A stretch of DNA of 64,000 nucleotides from assembly GCA_965262725.1 (NCBI GenBank), contig OZ253555.1, positions 3,456,001 through 3,520,000 on the forward strand, read 5' to 3'. Origin of the DNA: Dehalococcoidia bacterium. GTDB taxonomy: Bacteria; Chloroflexota; Dehalococcoidia; UBA2979. Positions within the stretch are counted from its first letter, which is position 1; the number at the start of each line of letters is the position of its first letter. The notes below the pieces were generated by a model. It ran no database searches, was not told where the DNA came from, and saw only the letters and a program-made list of their open reading frames with translations. Made by a program: the position numbers and the translations under genes. Below are positions 45,864 through 54,414 of this stretch, piece after piece.

Positions 45864-47033
45864 TTCGCCCCTTCTCCCGTGACCCAGGCGGACGGGCATC
45901 CACACGGATCTGGGCTGGCCAGGACGACCCTAGGCAATCTCGAGCCCGGAACGCAGCCTACTCTCAATCCACCGAATGGCGCCGAACCGCGCCGCGCCGG
46001 ATGGTGTAGCCAATGACGACCGCAGACGCTCGAGACCCGCGTGAGGATCGCGCGGCACTCGAAGGGCTGCTCGGCCCCGCTGAAGCGATCGAGACGCACC
46101 TGTTGCACTGGACGTCGACCCGGTTTCCAGGGGGTGACGACGCCCGATCGGGCCTCCCGTACGACGCCGATCGCCATGAGGCGGTCTATTACCATCACGA
46201 CCCCACCTCCGGCCTCCGAGCGATGATCGCGTTGCACGCGACCGTCCTCGGTCCCGGTCTGGGAGGGGCGCGCTGGCAGCCATACGCGGACATCGGCGAA
46301 GCGCTGACCGACGTGCTGCGACTCTCGGCGGCCATGACGGCAAAGATGGGAGTCTCGGGCCTCGACTGCGGCGGCGGCAAGGCCGTGATCGTCGGGGACC
46401 CGACGACCAAGACGACCGACCAACTCGCCGCCTACGGCCGCTTCGTCGAGCGGCTGCACGGGCACTACGTCACCGGCACCCACGTGGGCACCACCCTGGA
46501 TGAACTGCCAAAGATCGCCCAGCAAACGTCCCATATCGTGGGCCTCAGTCCGACCGGCGATGTCGTCAAGGACACGGCGGAGCCGACGGTGCTCAACGGT
46601 ATGCGCGCGGCGCTGCGCGCCGTGTTCGGAGACGGCTCGCTGGGCGGGGCGTCGCATCGTTGTCATCGGCGTGGGCAAGGTCGGCGGGGAGGTGACGCGC
46701 CGGGCCACCGCCGAGGGCGCTGAGGTCGCGGTAGCGGACCTGCACGAGGACGTCGCCGCTGATCTCGCGAATCAGATCGGCGCCGAACTCATCGCCCTCG
46801 ACGCCGCTTATCTCGAATCCACCGAACGAAGCTTGACGAGGCGGGGTGCCGGGCTGCCGGAGAGTTCGGCGGGCGTGCCGGCGTTCGCCGGGCGGCGCCG
46901 GGGGCGGGCCGGAGCCAGGAGCCGTCGCTCAGCACCGCTCGGGGGCGCTGAGGGTGCGGGCGCGAGGGTGCGCGAGGCGTGGGCGGGCATGCTGGCGCGA
47001 GCCTCGGACCCGGGTCGGCGCTGTGAGCGGGCG

Positions 47034-48359
47034 TCAGGCCGGGAGCGGTATCGCCCGTAGTCGCGCGAGCGCGGCTGCCAGCTGCTCTGCCCAGGGCCAG
47101 CGCTTCGGGAGGTGCAGAGTCCACCGCCGGGCAGAGCGGGTGAGCCGTCCGGCGAGAGAGAAGTAGCGCCGCCTGAGCGTCCTGGTCGTCATGATTCCCT
47201 CGCCGAGCCCGAGGCGCGCCGTCCAGCGGGCGAGGTTGTGCGCGATCACCTGCACCGCGAGCCACGCCGCGTTCGCGGCGAAGCGGCCCGAGGGGAGATG
47301 GTTCAACCCGACGCCGTACTTGAGGTCGCGGATCGCGTTCTCGATCTCGGCGTGACGGCGATGGTCGGCCTCCAGCTCCATCATCTCCCCCGCGCGGTTG
47401 GTGATGAAGACGTGGTAACTGTAGTCCACGAAGAGCGCGAGCTGTGACCCGGGCGTCGGCGTGACGCGCCGCACGATGAGCCGCACCGCAGTGGCGTCCC
47501 CCGTGTGCTGGAACGGCGTGTAGGTCGTCTCGGCGACAGCGGCGCCGCCCGCCAGCCAGTACGGGATCGGCGTCCAGTCCTCTTCCGGTATCGCCTCGAT
47601 CAGCGTGCGTAGGTTCCGCTGCTGGCGGACCGTGACTGAGAAGCGGACATCCATCGCGCGGCAGGCGGCGACGACGGCGTGGGTGTAGAAGCCGCTGTCG
47701 GCGCGCACCGTGAGCTGCCCGCTCGCCCCGGCGTCGCGCACCCGCGCCACCGTCTCACGCAGGAAGTGGGCGGCCCCCCGAGCGGTGTTGGCACGGCCCC
47801 CGCGCAGCCGGGCCATCAGCACCTCACCCGTCCCGGCCGCCACCGCGAACAGCGGGTGATAGCCCCGCACGCCCGTGTAGCCGTGGTGCCGGGCGCCCTC
47901 TTTCGCCAGTCCGTAGGTCTCGCAGAGCGTCGAGTCGAGGTCGATCGTGAACGGCGCCGCGCCGGGTCCCGCCCCGGCCGCCCAGCTGCGGGCCAGCAAC
48001 TCGCGGCTGACGCGGTCGAGCTGACGGACGTGGCCCCAGCGAAAGCTGCGCAGGAAGGTCCCGAGGGTGGACGGCGCCTTCACGGTGCAGCCGAGCACGC
48101 GCCCGGCGCCGCCTGAGCGCATGGCATCGGCGTCATCGATGCAGTCGCCGCCCGCGAGCGCCGAGGCGATGAGAGTCATCAGCTTGTCGCCGACGTTCGC
48201 CCGCCCCGCTGCGTCACCGAGGTCGAGGTGGGCGTCTGCCAGTTCACGGAGGCCGAGCCGGCCAGCGAGCGTGGCCGGGAGCAGCAGGCCCGCGTCGTCC
48301 ACGAGGCGGTCGTCGTCGAAGGCGATGTGTATCCGGTCGGGGCTGCTCGTTGGTAGCAT
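47034..48359 (-). CDS. IS1380-family DDE transposase
   Basis: AGLL, APSTLGTFLR, IDLDST, GYHPL, VRADSGFY, HRRHAEIENAIRDLK. Confidence 0.93.
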   Translation of the reverse strand: MLPTSSPDRIHIAFDDDRLVDDAGLLLPATLAGRLGLRELADAHLDLGDAAGRANVGDKLMTLIASALAGGDCIDDADAMRSGGAGRVLGCTVKAPSTLGTFLRSFRWGHVRQLDRVSRELLARSWAAGAGPGAAPFTIDLDSTLCETYGLAKEGARHHGYTGVRGYHPLFAVAAGTGEVLMARLRGGRANTARGAAHFLRETVARVRDAGASGQLTVRADSGFYTHAVVAACRAMDVRFSVTVRQQRNLRTLIEAIPEEDWTPIPYWLAGGAAVAETTYTPFQHTGDATAVRLIVRRVTPTPGSQLALFVDYSYHVFITNRAGEMMELEADHRRHAEIENAIRDLKYGVGLNHLPSGRFAANAAWLAVQVIAHNLARWTARLGLGEGIMTTRTLRRRYFSLAGRLTRSARRWTLHLPKRWPWAEQLAAALARLRAIPLPA

Positions 48360-48532
48360 CGAATGGGTGCTCCCTGTGGCTGTGACGTGATTCGTTGAAA
48401 AACCATTGTCCCAGCTACAGCGGAGCACCCATTCGCAGCCGCGCATGCGCTCTTCTTCGGTTCGCGGTAGGGATGCCGGTTGCCCGGCACCCCCCGCACA
48501 GATCCGGACGTGCCCTCTCGGGCATCCGGCTC

Positions 48533-49861
48533 CTACCTCAAGTGCGTGACGGCAAATCGCTCCGCAGGCCACGGGTGAAGGATGGAGATTCGGGGCCAGT
48601 GTTTCTGGCACAGGGCAAGGATGCGCTCCCACGTGAAACGGTCGCGCTGCGACCGCCGTCGGAGAACGCGCAGCCAGAGCCGCTTCACGACACGAACAAA
48701 CTGCGTGAGCGCCGGCGAGCTGGTCGGCACCGCGTAGTAGCCAAGCCACCCACGCAGTACCCGCCCCAGCCACTGCCCCGTCGTCACGGGGTTGTCGTGC
48801 ATGCGCCGCCACAACTCGGCCTTGATGGCCTTCAGCGTCCGGCGCATCCGCTTCGCAACGGGCTTGCGCCCCAGCCCGAATCTCCCGTCGCGTCGGGTCC
48901 GGCAGTAGTGCGTCATGCCGAGAAAGTCGAACGTCTCCGGTCGGCCCTCCCCGCGCTTCCGCCTGTTCGCCAGCGCGAACCTGCCGAACTCAAGTAGACG
49001 GGTCTTCTCCGGGTGCAGCTCCAGCCCGTAGGCCGCGAACCGCTCCCGGAGTGCCTCCATGAACCGCACCGCATCGCTGCGGTGCTGGAACCCCAGGACG
49101 AAGTCATCGGCATACCGCACGATGTACGCCTCGCCCCGGACCTCCCGCGGTCGCCACTCGCGCGCAAACCAGTCGTCGAGCACGTTGTGCAGGTACACGT
49201 TCGCAAGCAGCGGCGATATCGGCGCCCCCTGCGGCATCCCCCGCACGAAATCGACTTCCGGCTCCGCGTCCATGACGCCGACGCTCAGCCACTTTCGTAT
49301 CAGGCGCAACACCCGCTGGTCCCCGATGCGCATCTCCAGAAACGACATCAGCCGCCCCCGGTCGATGCTGCCGAAGAACTCCCGGATGTCCACCTCGACA
49401 ATCCAGCTGACCTTGCGCCGTTCGACCGCGTAGGCCAGTGCGTCCAGCGCGTCATGCGCCGAACGCCCCGGCCTGAAGCCATGCGAGAAGCCGTAGTAGC
49501 CCGACTCGTAAATCGGGTTCAAAAGATTGTCCACCACCGCCCGCTGAACGATCTTGTCCTCCAGCGAGACGATACCGAGCGGCCGTATTCCCCCGTCCGG
49601 CTTGGGTATCTCTACCCGCCTGACGGGCTTCGCCCGGTACGCTCCACGGTGTACGCGGCCATGCAGGTCGAGCAATCGCTCGTCCAGCCCGTCCCCGTAT
49701 TCTCGCCACCTCACCCCGTCCACGCCCGGAGCCGCATCCCGCTTCAACGCGAGATACGCCTCCCGCAGCGCCTCCGGCGTGATGTGGTGCAAGAGCGCGG
49801 TGAGTTTCTCTCCCGGCTTCCGTTCCACGAACTGCCGTATCCTCTCCGCTCCGGGTGACAC
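48533..49861 (-). CDS. ltrA: Group II intron reverse transcriptase/maturase
   Basis: APGVDG, IPKPDG..RPLGI, GFRPGRS, PQGAPISPLLAN, RYADD, FDFLG, maturase X domain; no HNH. Confidence 0.95.
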   Translation of the reverse strand: MSPGAERIRQFVERKPGEKLTALLHHITPEALREAYLALKRDAAPGVDGVRWREYGDGLDERLLDLHGRVHRGAYRAKPVRRVEIPKPDGGIRPLGIVSLEDKIVQRAVVDNLLNPIYESGYYGFSHGFRPGRSAHDALDALAYAVERRKVSWIVEVDIREFFGSIDRGRLMSFLEMRIGDQRVLRLIRKWLSVGVMDAEPEVDFVRGMPQGAPISPLLANVYLHNVLDDWFAREWRPREVRGEAYIVRYADDFVLGFQHRSDAVRFMEALRERFAAYGLELHPEKTRLLEFGRFALANRRKRGEGRPETFDFLGMTHYCRTRRDGRFGLGRKPVAKRMRRTLKAIKAELWRRMHDNPVTTGQWLGRVLRGWLGYYAVPTSSPALTQFVRVVKRLWLRVLRRRSQRDRFTWERILALCQKHWPRISILHPWPAERFAVTHLR

Positions 49862-50089
49862 CGCACCCCGACTCTGCGTCCGGACCGTGCCGGTGCTTTG
49901 AGGATTCCTCTCGGTTGGGGCCCTTTGCTCCAGCGACTCCGCCGGGGCTCGCGCCCCCTTCTATGAGGGTCGTCTGATCCGCAAGGCCGACGTGGCGGCC
50001 TTCTGCACCGTTCTACCGATCGCGCCTCCCGTCCGCAGCCCTGTGGTGGTTGTCGGTGCCGATGCGAGTGGTGCCGCCGTCTTGTCCCC

Positions 50090-50240
50090 GGGACGTTGTG
50101 GTGACCGTGCTTCTATTCGCACTCGTCGAGGGGCCGCTCCGGGCCCGGTGCATGATGATCAGCCTGTCTCCAGGGTGTGGGCGCTGCCATCTTGTTCCCG
50201 TCCTCGTTGGGACCAGGGGGTTCCGCAGTCGCCCGCGTGT
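50090..50240 (-). ncRNA. Predicted bridge/seek RNA of the IS1111-type element
   Basis: Target loop CCCCCT..hairpin..GAACAAG and donor loop TCATC..hairpin..ATAGAAG on the minus strand; boundaries approximate. Confidence 0.75.
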
Positions 50241-50306
50241 CGGCATCTCTCGTATCCTCCGAAGCCCACCGGCCGCCCGGTCGCCTCGCTCCTCGCGTGC
50301 TGTCTG

Positions 50307-51398
50307 CTACGCCGCCTCGGCCGCGCGCGCGTGGCGCAACGGCTCGTAGACCTCCCCGCTCTTCCAGAGCGCAAGCATCAGCACCGCCAGTCGCCTCGCG
50401 ACCGCGACGACGGCACGCTTCTTCGCATTGCCGGCCCCCGACTCCGCGTAACGCAGCCCCCACCTGCGGAGGTCGCTGTCGGGGCCGAAGGGGCCCAGGA
50501 TGTAGTGCGCGGCCTGGTTCAGCACCCGGCGCAGCGCCACGTCCCCTTCCTTCGTGATCCGCAGCTGGGGCTGCCGATCACCGGAATCGCGGCTCCGGGG
50601 CACCAGCCCCAGGTAGGGCCCCACCTCCCTGTTCTTGGGGAAGCGGGCCGGGTCCTCGATGGTGAGGATGAAGGTGAGCGAGGTGATCGGGCCGACGCCC
50701 ACGATCTGCCGCAGCGCGCCGGTCTCCGCGTAGCGCTCGCACATCGCGGCGAGCTTCTTGTCGGCCTGGCGGATCTCCCCGGTCAGCTGCTCGATCTGGT
50801 GGAGCACCGGCAGCAGCGCCGGGCCCAGCTCCTCGGGGATGTGCTCTCTGACCGCGCGGTGGAAGGCCGGCGCCGTGCAGCCCGGAAGCGCCGCGCCCCA
50901 CGCCTTCACCGCGCCCCGGACGTGGTTGATGAACATCGTGCGCGCCCGGACCAGCGCCTCGCGGCTGCGGAGCACCTGGAGGTCCGCCTGCGCCATGGCG
51001 CTTCGGTGCCGGATGGGGAAGAGGAGCGCCGGGTCGAATCGGCCGAGCCGTGCGAGGTGCTCGGCATCGGAGCGGTCGGTCTTGCGCTGGCTGCGCGCGA
51101 TCAGCCTGACCTGCCTCGGGTTGGCGACGATCACGTCGTGACCGAGCTCCGCGAACATCCGGCTCAGCCACGGGGAACGCGGCCCCACCTCCATCACCAC
51201 CCGGGCGCCCTGCAGTGGGGTGAGCGCCCGCGTGAGCGCCGCGGTCGTGGTGCGGACTCGCTCCTCCCGCACGATCTCCCCGTCGCCACCGAGGACGCAG
51301 AGGTGGCTGTAGCGGTCGCTGACGTCGATGCCGACAGTCACGAGCTCCGCATCCCCCACCTTCCTGCTCTCTGTGACATCTGATGTACGCTGTGCCAC
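50307..51398 (-). CDS. IS110/IS1111 recombinase
   Basis: GIDVS, VMEVG, KTDRSDA, YLGLVP..DSG; GTG start after AGGAG. Confidence 0.95.
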   Translation of the reverse strand: MAQRTSDVTESRKVGDAELVTVGIDVSDRYSHLCVLGGDGEIVREERVRTTTAALTRALTPLQGARVVMEVGPRSPWLSRMFAELGHDVIVANPRQVRLIARSQRKTDRSDAEHLARLGRFDPALLFPIRHRSAMAQADLQVLRSREALVRARTMFINHVRGAVKAWGAALPGCTAPAFHRAVREHIPEELGPALLPVLHQIEQLTGEIRQADKKLAAMCERYAETGALRQIVGVGPITSLTFILTIEDPARFPKNREVGPYLGLVPRSRDSGDRQPQLRITKEGDVALRRVLNQAAHYILGPFGPDSDLRRWGLRYAESGAGNAKKRAVVAVARRLAVLMLALWKSGEVYEPLRHARAAEAA

Positions 51399-52294
51399 GG
51401 TCGGTCTCCTACCTCTCTCGGCTCGCCTGAGCCGTTCTCCTGGGCCACCACGTGAGCCCGTGCTTGGAGGGGAAGTATCCCCTCTGAGGAGGGGACCGAC
51501 CCTCATGTCATCTTGTTCGCCGCCTTCATCGCTCGTACGGCCCCATCAGACTGCTGCGCATCGTTCATCATCGGCTACGGTTTACGTCCCTTCCCGACGC
51601 GGTCCCGGCGTACGACTCGTCGGGACAACGCGCAGCTCTCCCAAGTCCCGGCGATAGACGTGTGTGCGTGCATGGGGTCTTCGACACCGTGGGGCCCGAC
51701 CACGACTCGCCAGTAGCGCCGTCGCCGGTATTGCCTTCGACCAATCCAAGAGCCTCGGCACCCCAAATGGCCCTTTCGATGCTCATTAGCCCCGCCCGCA
51801 CACCCCGCTGCCGACGCTTCACAAGCCGCCTCGCGACGACCCGCGCACGGCTCGCGGAATGACATGAGTGGCTAGCTCTTTGCCATAGAGGACTTCCACC
51901 TCCTGCCTACTCGCCAGTTAGCCTGGCGCTCTGGATCAGGGCTTATGCGCAGCCGTGCGACGTGCTCTCGCCGAACGCACTCGGCGGCGTGTTGAACGAT
52001 GTGACGATCCGCAAGTTGCGCTGCCGCATCGTCTGCGGCGGGGCGAACAACCAGTTGCAACGCGACCCCGCCGACGCCGAACTCCTTAGCCGCACGCGGG
52101 ATCGCGTATGCGCCGGACTACGTCGTGAACGCTGGCGGCGCCATCGAGGTCGGTGTCGACTACGGCGTCGGCTCGACGGCGTCGGAGCAACCGTGCTGGA
52201 GCTGCTAAGCCGCGCAGAGCGCGAGGGCATCTCGACCGCGGAGGCGGCGTTGCGGAGCGTTGACGTCCGACTCGCGCGGGCGCTGGCCGGGTGA

Positions 52295-52485
52295 GGCGGA
52301 ACGGCGCGGCCGGGCCACACGAGACGTACGGACGCGGGTGTCCCAACGCCTCAACCCGTCACCGTTGCGCCGTGCCCCGCGTGCCCCGCTGCGCTCGCCG
52401 CAGCCCGCGCCTACCTGCGCCGAGACGCCGGCGTCCACTACCGCCTTGAGCGCCGCCTCGGCCTCGCGCAGAACATCCGCAGACG
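52295..52485 (-). pseudogene. IS256 (Mutator) transposase N-terminal remnant
   Basis: DVLRE..VVDAGVSAQVGAG.GERS..R...RNG...RRWDTRV matches the IS256 N-terminal pattern. Confidence 0.65.
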
Positions 52486-52545
52486 AGACGGCTGATGGGA
52501 GGACGAGAGGCGACGGGTGGGGCGCGGGCGTGACACACTGACGGG

Positions 52546-53241
52546 GTGGGGACGCCGGAGCCGGGGCTGTGCGGGGACTGCCGGTGGGCACGGGCGGTCG
52601 TGAGCGACCGCGGCTCGCGCTTCCTGCGCTGCGGCCGCGCCGACGACGATCCCTCGTTCCCGCGCTACCCCGCCCTTCCCGTGCGGGAGTGCCCGGGCTT
52701 CTCGCCGGCTCCGCGTGTGGCCGGAGGGCGCGAGAGGACCGCGAACGGCGGGCCCGGCGCCCGCTCCCCGGGCGTGATCCCGCTCACCCCCGCGGCGACG
52801 GCGGCGGACCCGACCACGACACCCGGGCCGGAATCCACGCTCTTCCGGCGCATCGGCGGCCGCCCGACCGTTGAGCGTCTCGTCGCCGAGTTCTACGCAC
52901 GCATCGAGCGCGACCCCGAGCTGCGCCCGCTCTTCCCCGCGGACCTCGGGCCGGGCCGCGAGAAGCAGGCGCTCTTCCTCGAGCAGTGGCTCGGCGGCGA
53001 GCCGCGCTACAGCGCGCTCTACGGCCACCCGAGGCTCAGGAGGCGCCACTTCCCGTTCGTGATCGATGAGCGGGCCGCCGGCCGCTGGCTGCACCACATG
53101 GCGGAGGCGACGCGGGCGACCGGTATCGCCGCACCCGAGCGCACCGAGATCGTGCGCGGCCTCGGCCCGCTCGCCCGTCACATGACGAACGCCGGTGACG
53201 ACGTGCCGCGGGCTCCGCTCGAGGACCCACGGCTCTCCTAG
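52546..53241 (+). CDS. Group II truncated hemoglobin with a fused N-terminal four-Cys domain
   Basis: LFRRIGG..LVAEFY..LRPLFP..FLEQWLGG..Y..GHPRLRRRH.PF..W; N-term CGDC..C..C. Confidence 0.8.
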   Translation: MGTPEPGLCGDCRWARAVVSDRGSRFLRCGRADDDPSFPRYPALPVRECPGFSPAPRVAGGRERTANGGPGARSPGVIPLTPAATAADPTTTPGPESTLFRRIGGRPTVERLVAEFYARIERDPELRPLFPADLGPGREKQALFLEQWLGGEPRYSALYGHPRLRRRHFPFVIDERAAGRWLHHMAEATRATGIAAPERTEIVRGLGPLARHMTNAGDDVPRAPLEDPRLS

Positions 53242-54414
53242 TGTCCTGATTCGTAATAGCGACAGATAACGGGTATGGTGGCACAGCGGGGTTTTGCCCC
53301 ATGGGGCAGACTCTGGAGTGTCATGAGCACCCGAATCGGACGGCCGACGGTCGCGATCGTCCTGAGCGACGAGGAGCGTGAGACGCTGGAGCGGTGGGCG
53401 CGCCGGCCGACATCGGCCCAGGCGCTGGCGCTGCGCTGTCGCATCGTCCTGGCAGCGGCCGAGGGGACATCGAATAAAGCGATCGCCGCGGCGCTCGATT
53501 GCCATCCGGTCACCGTCGGCAAGTGGCGCCGGCGCTTTGCGCAGGGGCGGCTCGATGGGCTACAGGATGAGCCGCGCCCCGGGGCGCCGCGCACGATCGC
53601 CGATGCACAGGTGGAAGCGGTGATCGTCACGACGCTGGAGGAGCAGCCTCCCAACGCGACGCACTGGTCGACCCGATCGATGGCAGCCGCGGTCGGGATG
53701 TCGCAGTCGGCGATCTTCAGGATCTGGCGCGCCTTCGGCCTGAAGCCGCACCTCGTGGAGAGCTTCAAGCTGTCGCCCGACCCGCAGTTCATCGACAAGG
53801 TGCGCGACGTGGCCGGGCTCTATCTCAACCCGCCCGACGCGGCGGTTGTGCTGTGCGTGGACGAGAAGACCCAGATCCAGGCACTCGACCGCACCGCGCC
53901 GACGGTGCCGATGATGCCCGGCGTCCCCGCCCGCCAGACGCACGACTACATCCGTCACGGCACGACGAACCTCTACGCGGCGCTCGATGTCGCCTCGGGA
54001 TGCGTGATCACGGAGATGACCCCCCGGCACCGGGCTCGGGAGTTCCAGCAGTTCCTCGCCCTCATCGACCAAAGCGTTCCCCATGAGCTGGCGGTGCATG
54101 TCGTGCTCGACAACGTCTCCACGCACCGCACGCCCGCCATCCAGCGCTGGCTCCAGCGCCATCCCCGCTTCACCTTCCATTTCACGCCGACCTACAGCTC
54201 CTGGATGAACCTCGTGGAGCGCTGGTTTGCAGAGCTCACCAGCAAGTGGCTCCGGCGCGGCACGCACCATAGCGTCCCTGATCTGATCCGCTCAGTGGAG
54301 ATGTGGGTCGCCAGCTGGAACGAGAATCCGAGGCCCTTCATCTGGCACAAGTCCGCGGACCAGATCCTTGACAACCTCGCCGGATATCTAGAGCGCATCC
54401 CTGAATCGGGACAC
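53241..54414 (+). mobile_element. IS630-family element, TA duplication
   Basis: IRs GTGTCCTGATTC / GAATCGGGACAC; TA at 53239-40 and 54415-16. Confidence 0.93.

Follow-up and report, generated by a model that had tools for sequence, protein, structure and literature searches.

The IS1111 seekRNAs of ISEc11, ISKpn4, ISPst6 and ISPa11 were proven by Siddiquee et al. 2024 (PMC11187229), and in these RNAs the segment matching the top strand of the target lies 5' of the segment matching the bottom strand. The IS110-group element IS621 (Durrant et al. 2024, PMC11208160; PDB 8wt6) relies on a two-loop guide RNA, in which a target loop and a donor loop each read both strands. Members of the two groups are told apart by the subterminal repeats and the long downstream non-coding end of IS1111 elements (PMC11187229; PMC11208160). 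Here we describe an insertion sequence (IS), assigned to the IS1111 group, at positions 49958-51514 (minus strand) of a 64,000-nt stretch of DNA from a Dehalococcoidia bacterium (contig OZ253555.1, positions 3,456,001 to 3,520,000; hereafter the window). The element interrupts a group II intron. Very probably, its recombinase is guided by a bridge/seek RNA that derives from the 3' non-coding end of the element and is set to a site in this intron.

In common with ISEc11, ISKpn4, ISPst6 and ISPa11, the window element combines a DEDD transposase carrying the GL-P----SG motif with subterminal repeats and a long downstream non-coding region, and it contains short segments that match both target strands, overlap at the crossover and follow the same strand order (PMC11187229). 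It differs from these elements in the length of its protein, 363 aa compared with the 330-350 aa stated for the family in that paper, in its host, an uncultured Dehalococcoidia, and in its target, which is a group II intron and not attC, a repetitive extragenic palindromic (REP) sequence or another site; its RNA is a predicted one. With IS621 it shares the two-loop design of the guide RNA, a common dinucleotide core (CT on the plus strand of the window element) and a similar C-terminal domain (E 2e-9), although only residues 228-358 of the window protein align by sequence. Unlike IS621, in which the RNA is located in the left end upstream of the gene and the repeats measure 2-3 bp (PMC11208160), the window element has its RNA in the right end and repeats of 10 bp.

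RNA-guided IS110/IS1111 recombinases are in development as genome-writing tools, and hence their natural addresses show what the system evolved to hit. To the natural targets known so far (REP, attC, transposon and IS ends) the window element adds a retroelement. The original prediction, made from the letters of the window, knew of no described intron-targeting case, and our literature search likewise yielded no report of an IS110/IS1111 element with a group II intron as its target; that search did not extend to the target tables in the supplements of PMC11187229 and PMC11208160, which could list one. What is new is thus, apparently, the target class and a two-way nesting of element and intron, the bridge/seek RNA mechanism itself being known.

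The element and its insertion site

The window DNA is high in GC, and its closest public relatives are metagenome-assembled genomes labelled Dehalococcoidia. Between 49958 and 51514 the only long minus-strand open reading frame (ORF) is the DEDD recombinase (transposase) gene at 50307-51398, which encodes 363 aa plus a stop codon and starts with GTG after GGAG. The protein matches PF01548 (DEDD, RuvC-like N-terminal domain; E 2.7e-19) and PF02371 (IS116/IS110/IS902 C-terminal domain; E 7.2e-18), scores 217 bits against NCBIfam NF033542 'IS110 family RNA-guided transposase' (cut-off 140), and, over its C-terminal third, aligns with the PDB entries of the IS621 and ISCro4 transposases. The C-terminal motif GLVPRSRDSG, read by eye in the translation and not from a family-logo alignment, fits the pattern GL-P----S(t)G. 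On the plus strand the ends of the IS read ...GCGCCCC|CTTCTATGAGG and ...GTCATCTT|GTTCGCC. A subterminal inverted repeat is formed by ATGAGGGTCG at 49963-49972 (right-end arm) and CGACCCTCAT at 51497-51506 (left-end arm), both given on the plus strand. The two 10-nt arms are 100% complementary, are set back by 5 and 8 nt from the termini of the 1,557-nt stretch, and fall within the range of 7-17 bp for IS1111 repeats. Downstream of the transposase gene 349 nt are non-coding (49958-50306), compared with a 5' leader of 116 nt, as in the IS1111 group. By these sequence features it belongs to the IS1111 group of the IS110 family.

The window genome (G000; a single contig, C1, of 3.67 Mb) contains four full copies of the IS, which are 100% identical over 1,557 nt and have an intact ORF, intact ends and an intact RNA scaffold. 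All four are flanked on the plus strand by ...GCGCCCC CTT | IS | CTT GTTCGCC..., and the ends of the element were set from 11 copies of the flanks that are free of the IS. Ten of these read GCGCCCC-CTT-GTTCGCC and one reads TTT at the central position, showing that the empty target CCCC-CTT-GTTC, originally predicted, is real and exists beside four occupied sites. As the 1,557 nt contain both copies of CTT, the element proper measures 1,554 bp. In the orientation of the transposase the target is GAACA-AG-GGGG. Unoccupied, this 11-mer is present 11 times in the genome, ten times in copies of the group II intron and once elsewhere (C1:2481572), and four of four occupied sites are intron-derived DNA; the 22-bp intron segment around the target is CGGCGAACAAGGGGGCGCGAGCC. 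Insertion is sequence-specific, in one orientation and without a long target duplication: all four copies occupy the same 11-mer, and 3 nt are common to both junctions. Public contigs join 49957 to 51512, skipping 1,554 nt, in three of four runs, the matching sides being only 20-21 nt long where a minimum of 30 is advised. A circle junction was not seen in the contigs of the four runs, contigs being an unreliable means of showing one.

Broken or diverged IS copies are also present in the window genome, one split at C1:1707869-1712033 and fragments at 423997 and 1681867. Together with the ten matching intron sites that are still empty, they could indicate that the copies are now immobile relics, in which case the match between guide and target would record past activity only. 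Empty sites are, however, normal for transposition at low frequency, and four 100% identical copies with intact ORF, ends and scaffold point to recent activity. We therefore regard an immobile relic as unlikely.

The split copy represents a second IS type of the window genome (L005, L006, L062; C1:1707869-1708743 and 1711348-1712033; L numbers denote loci examined, and G numbers other than G000 genomes of relatives), 92-96% identical and split by a 2.6-kb insert. Its guides, GACGGAAGC and GGCCCTCAG, differ from those of the window element, and its right flank contains an 8-nt match to the reverse complement of its 5' guide. An Rfam scan of the split copy (L005/L006), including the 2.6-kb insert, gave no match.

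A candidate guide RNA in the 3' non-coding end

Alignments, a consensus structure and a covariance model delimit a conserved bridge/seek RNA scaffold of 145 nt (50105-50249, minus strand, as are all RNA features below) within the 349-nt non-coding end. In alignments of relatives the scaffold is almost invariant and is interrupted by two pairs of hypervariable segments. It consists of a basal stem GGGCG.CUGC/GCAGCGCCC, an apical hairpin GUCC-N6-GGAC, a small hairpin CCUG/CAGG and a second, larger stem-loop. In the consensus fold 99.5% of the cells are paired, compared with 37-44% for slid partners.

In the window copy, the 5' arm of the target-loop basal stem (50225-50234; GGGCGACUGC in the RNA) pairs with GCAGCGCCC at 50179-50187, and the nine pairs are invariant across 22 sequences. 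The 5' guide of the target loop, CCCCCU (50215-50220), is complementary to AG+GGGG on the transposase-sense target strand. The 3' guide, GAACAAG (50191-50197), has the same sequence as the left flank GAACA followed by the core AG and hence pairs with the other target strand, such that the top-strand match lies 5' of the bottom-strand match. Between the two guides the apical hairpin GUCC-CAACGA-GGAC (50200-50213; arms 50200-03/50210-13) is found in the consensus fold as well as in the single-sequence minimum free energy and centroid folds. In the donor loop, the 5' guide UCAUC (50154-50158) is complementary to G+ATGA, i.e. core plus left end, and the 3' guide AUAGAAG (50110-50116) reproduces the right end ATAGA together with the core AG. 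The donor-loop apical stem (50119-50151; GCACCGGGCC...GGCCC...GUGC) is the sole helix with compensatory changes, which affect three pairs. The original prediction had located the four segments, written on the plus strand as CTTGTTC, AGGGGG, CTTCTAT and GATGA, and the GTCC/GGAC hairpin at exactly these positions. It had also named a placement of the guides in stems as an argument against itself; in the consensus structure the variable guide segments are found in internal loops between invariant stems.

The joint presence of these segments is not readily obtained by chance. Of 200,000 mononucleotide shuffles of the 349-nt end, 84 contained the target pair, defined as a 7-mer and a 6-mer correctly ordered within 40 nt; 11 contained the donor pair, and none contained both. 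No family of Rfam 15 matched the non-coding end at E<=1, which says little, since Rfam may lack a model of IS1111-type bridge RNAs.

With this arrangement, the target loop would read both strands of GAACA-AG-GGGG, CCCCCU pairing with AG+GGGG and GAACAAG with the complement of GAACA+AG. The donor loop would likewise read the joined IS ends, ...ATAGA-AG-ATGAC..., of the excised circle, and strand exchange at the common AG core (CT on the plus strand) would insert the excised element. Since in this genome the 11-bp address is found almost only in domain IV of a multicopy intron, the IS would land in copies of the intron, and always in the sense orientation of the intron. Transcription of the RNA, its binding by the recombinase, the circular intermediate and strand exchange at the core are inferred by analogy with ISEc11, ISKpn4 and IS621.

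A complementarity of 10 nt between the 5' flank of the RNA (50238-47) and the GIDV codons of the transposase gene (51327-36) was considered as a regulatory pairing and rejected; chance alone would yield about one such match in 1.5 kb, and three relatives lack it.

Guides covary with flanks and IS ends among relatives

A scan of genome collections identified 22 related loci, and 60 further regions were added. In total 114 loci were examined, 100 of them with the scaffold, resulting in 103 scaffold copies, 60 unique insertions and 24 guide sets. A covariance model of the 145-nt core (R1) gave strong matches (E<1e-20) in 8 genomes of the family, including the window genome, with up to 32 copies in one genome. 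At E<=0.01 the model matched 12 of 99 family-level genomes; across the class 2 of 151 sampled genomes were matched, G000 included. These 24 guide sets on one nearly invariant scaffold constitute a natural series, from an uncultured phylum, that shows which positions of the RNA are free to be reprogrammed.

A common rule was derived from the relatives: the 3' guide reads as the left flank followed by AG, and the 5' guide is the reverse complement of AG followed by the right flank. It follows that the shared crossover core is AG (CT on the plus strand) and that the third duplicated base is coincidental. The CTT given in the original prediction is common to both junctions with its 3 nt, but the core within it is the dinucleotide only. 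The core of IS621 is reportedly CT as well.

For the left flank, a common substring of at least 7 nt with the guide was found in 28 of 48 cognate combinations and in 4 of 1082 non-cognate ones. The corresponding values for the right flank were 28/52 and 21/1193, most of the non-cognate matches stemming from near-identical guides. Counted by guide set, a best match of at least 6 nt was seen for 13 of the 19 sets whose left flank is readable, for 15 of the 20 whose right flank is readable, and on both sides for 10 of the 18 in which both can be read. When the 24 guide sets were permuted among site groups, the observed score of 257 was reached in 0 of 5000 permutations (mean 144.7, maximum 186). 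Comparison of the window IS with the 95%-identical relative L036 revealed that 9 of 13 guide columns differ, compared with 76 of 1547 columns elsewhere (Fisher p 1.7e-9). Covariation of guide and target across homologs, to which the original prediction had looked as a check, is therefore present.

The donor guides follow the ends of the element in a similar manner. The 3' guide tracks the right end in every readable row, ends with ATGGA-AG going with AUGGAAG and ends with ATAGA-AG with AUAGAAG. The 5' guide mirrors positions 4-5 of the left end (AC, GG, GC) in three clades, with a mismatch at position 5 in one clade and in L036. The claim that both halves of the donor are covered accordingly holds for the 7-nt match of CTTCTAT, while the 5-nt GATGA is weak alone and gains meaning only from the relatives.

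Several observations weigh against a guide RNA. The consensus pairs hardly vary (26 of 30 never do), and structural covariation is confined to three pairs in one helix. The fold is no more stable than that of shuffled sequences, with z -0.78 for the 349-nt end and -0.72 for the 145-nt core, and folding energy was not used as support. Folding of the non-coding end, as had been suggested, bears out the prediction in part: the single-sequence fold gives the target module and not the consensus donor module. In the window copy the guide matches are short: the target guides match over 7 and 6 nt, the donor guides over 7 and 5 nt. Among the relatives, L050, L048, the right flanks of L047 and L112 and some others mismatch their own guides, as do three of seven copies of one IS type in G224 with respect to their own flanks. 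Finally, the relatives are close kin from two genera, and the covariation counts consequently overstate the number of independent events.

Matches of only 5-7 nt, in a non-coding end that is no more stable than shuffled sequence, might also be leftovers of IS ends and target that have no guiding role, the site being picked by the recombinase protein in the manner of classical site-specific recombinases. Such a choice by the protein is difficult to reconcile with recombinases that are 88-95% identical and sit at unrelated sites, their loop segments changed to match, or with the outcome of the guide-set permutation. In addition, transposition of homologous IS1111 elements depends on the RNA, and these elements are reprogrammable (PMC11187229). 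We consider it highly improbable that the protein selects the site on its own. The bridge/seek RNA reading put forward originally is supported by the placement of the guides in loops, by their covariation with the flanks and by the intron target.

The four insertions are very probably independent

Three of the IS copies lie in near-identical introns, which have different exon contexts and represent three different haplotypes defined by 11 single nucleotide polymorphism (SNP) columns. None of the 11 columns is private to IS-bearing introns (0/11), and each haplotype is also found in introns without the IS. The fourth copy (L003, G000 C1:1954270-1956800) lies within an ORF-less intron relic that is only ~72% identical around the site and has kept 22 nt of the target. 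Different haplotypes, different contexts and a diverged relic argue for four separate insertions and not for one copied composite; retrohoming of a composite intron::IS was rejected on the SNP haplotypes.

Engineered group II introns tolerate cargo in domain IV, and the IS is located in domain IV in the sense orientation of the intron. With four IS copies that are 100% identical, it might be supposed that the IS inserted only once and that retrohoming or segmental duplication subsequently spread the carrier intron, so that common descent would explain the shared target. A single insertion would have to account for haplotypes shared with IS-free introns and lacking a private SNP, and for the different exon contexts; moreover, an ORF-less relic of ~72% identity cannot be a recent copy of the other IS-bearing introns. 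Gene conversion among intron copies could blur haplotypes, and the exclusion of a single insertion is in this respect not absolute. It nevertheless appears very unlikely, and we retain repeated insertion at the same address.

The relic in L003 is one arm of an inverted pair, and each arm joins intron positions ~289-543 to ~1832-1917. It was recognized by BLAST; an Rfam scan of L003 gave no match.

The intron as landing place

The group II intron extends from 48461 to 51931 (minus strand) and comprises 1,917 nt without the IS, its boundaries being derived from 14 copies and from an empty homing site in L080. In the Rfam analysis it matched RF02005 (D1-D4) at 51896-51675 with 170 bits and RF00029 (D5/D6) at 48534-48460 with 39.9 bits, the latter being marginal with respect to the gathering score of 40. 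A reverse transcriptase (RT)/maturase ORF of 442 aa is encoded at 48533-49861 (minus strand; RVT_1 E 1.6e-36; TIGR04416 327 bits, cut-off 300). The IS interrupts domain IV on the same strand, ~420 nt from the 5' end of the intron, the exact position being ambiguous due to the duplicated AAG. The site lies at the base of a GGGGC-GCGA-GCCCC hairpin that precedes the RT gene. The RT start codon follows 97 nt downstream of the IS in the sense of the intron, and the target segment is non-coding; hence the prediction of a non-coding intron target upstream of the RT ORF proved right, and the segment can be assigned to domain IV.

The intron itself is located in the left end of a further IS. A gene for an IS1380-family transposase (NCBIfam NF033539, 338 bits) is found at 47034-48350 (minus strand), and the 162 nt downstream of the intron recur in many copies at about 93% identity. 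The intron lies ~14 nt inside the IS1380-family left end (51932-51945), with the 5' exon TAAGCCCTGATCCA and the 3' exon CCGAAGAAGAG.... The window thus presents a three-level nest, an IS within an intron within the left end of an IS1380-family element. In an Rfam scan of 46000-54000 at E<=1, a weak match to sR41 at 51524-51575 (21.6 bits, compared with 54) was attributed to chance.

Two more copies of the window intron (G000 C1:1522773-1524988 and C1:1876116-1877443) carry insertions of ~2.2 kb and ~1.3 kb, respectively. Unlike the window IS, these lie inside the RT gene, near intron position 855-885.

Addresses of relatives and the reverse nesting

Mostly, the relatives address other mobile DNA. 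In G224 the address is the terminus of a repeat family; in G220 it falls within a conserved coding segment of a repeated element, and in G225 at another site of this kind. Judged by motifs, these may be IS5/IS1182-like and IS21-like transposase genes. Of the 24 guide sets, two are directed at the intron, namely that of the window element (domain IV, sense) and that of L042 (antisense), so that one IS clade has two different intron addresses. The latter IS (L042:2385, G223) lies antisense in a group II intron, at a distance of 10-12 nt from the intron's 5' end, and its guides GGCAGTTAG and GGGTCAGGCT face CCAG(G/T)T-AG-CCTGGCGC. The right flank of L042 runs on into another partial intron 5' piece.

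The IS1111 members IS4321 and IS5075 are said to target the terminal repeats of Tn21-family transposons, and they and the IS1111-attC group reportedly have their address in another mobile element or in a repeated recombination site. Like these elements, the window IS has a multicopy, harmless landing place. Unlike theirs, this landing place is a retroelement, a ribozyme-encoding intron, and the relation is two-way.

The reverse case was observed in G223, G222 and G225, where an intron 82-84% identical to the window type is located antisense in the left end of a related IS (L150 in G223; L152 in G222; L155, L159, L162, L165, L168, L170, L171 and L172 in G225; also L041, L067 and L081). This intron splits the IS left end after its first base, at the site ...CCCTCATGCCA|T. 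The intron adjoins the left end of the IS in such a way that the bottom strand of this end, ...CCCTCATGCCA|, forms the 5' exon of the intron. The own-type site, by comparison, reads ...CCCTGATCCA|C. Eight of the nine full intron 5' ends in G225 are in IS left ends, many of which may be copies of one nest; by their exon sequences, at least four different IS left-end contexts are represented across G223, G222 and G225. One domain I loop changes in step with the 5' exon. In the reverse-case intron UGGUAU pairs with AUGCCA (five Watson-Crick pairs and one G-U), and in the window-type intron UGGAUU pairs with GAUCCA. From its position and complementarity, this loop is probably exon-binding site 1 (EBS1). 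One and the same IS subtype of G223 is found within an intron (L042) and has itself been entered by an intron (L041/L150).

The group II intron RmInt1 reportedly homes into ISRm2011-2, and is thus a case of an intron entering an insertion sequence. The introns described here are similar in that the window intron lies in the left end of an IS1380-family element and its sister lineage in IS1111-type left ends, and in that the intron RNA pairs with the 5' exon. In contrast to the literature on RmInt1, which deals with introns entering IS elements, the window IS is addressed to the intron. The two-way nesting involves two RNA-guided mobile elements that address each other, and could be used to study competition or hitchhiking of selfish elements. 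One might speculate, although we think it rather unlikely, that the IS1111-type and intron lineages have been retargeted onto each other via bridge-RNA loops and EBS1, the relation being adaptive and not incidental. If this were true, the sense-oriented IS within domain IV would benefit from a phenotypically silent harbour, from transcription with the host transcript of the intron and possibly from passage by retrohoming. Conversely, an intron antisense in an IS left end would gain a multicopy homing site and cripple a competitor.

Further observations were made on the IS elements of the relatives. In G224, copies L070, L086 and L109 (guides GAGCGACCTGC and GCGGCAGAG) sit in the target of a more abundant IS type, TTTTTC-AG-CAGCCTGCT, and copies L080, L110 and L111 of the same IS type are at sites that match their own guides. 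The off-guide copies may result from guiding in trans by the RNA of the other element or from recombination between elements. Tandem arrays of 2-5 solo right ends (~45-nt units ending in ...CCCTCATAGAAG) are found downstream of the IS at L043:3776-3941, L045:3830-4611 and L047:3856-3961, and the array in L045 also repeats part of the RNA gene. In L051 (at ~3330) and in L081 the RNA gene is cut in or beside the 3' donor guide and is followed by the same foreign sequence, CGCCTCTATGTCAAACGG..., which suggests that yet another element inserts there.

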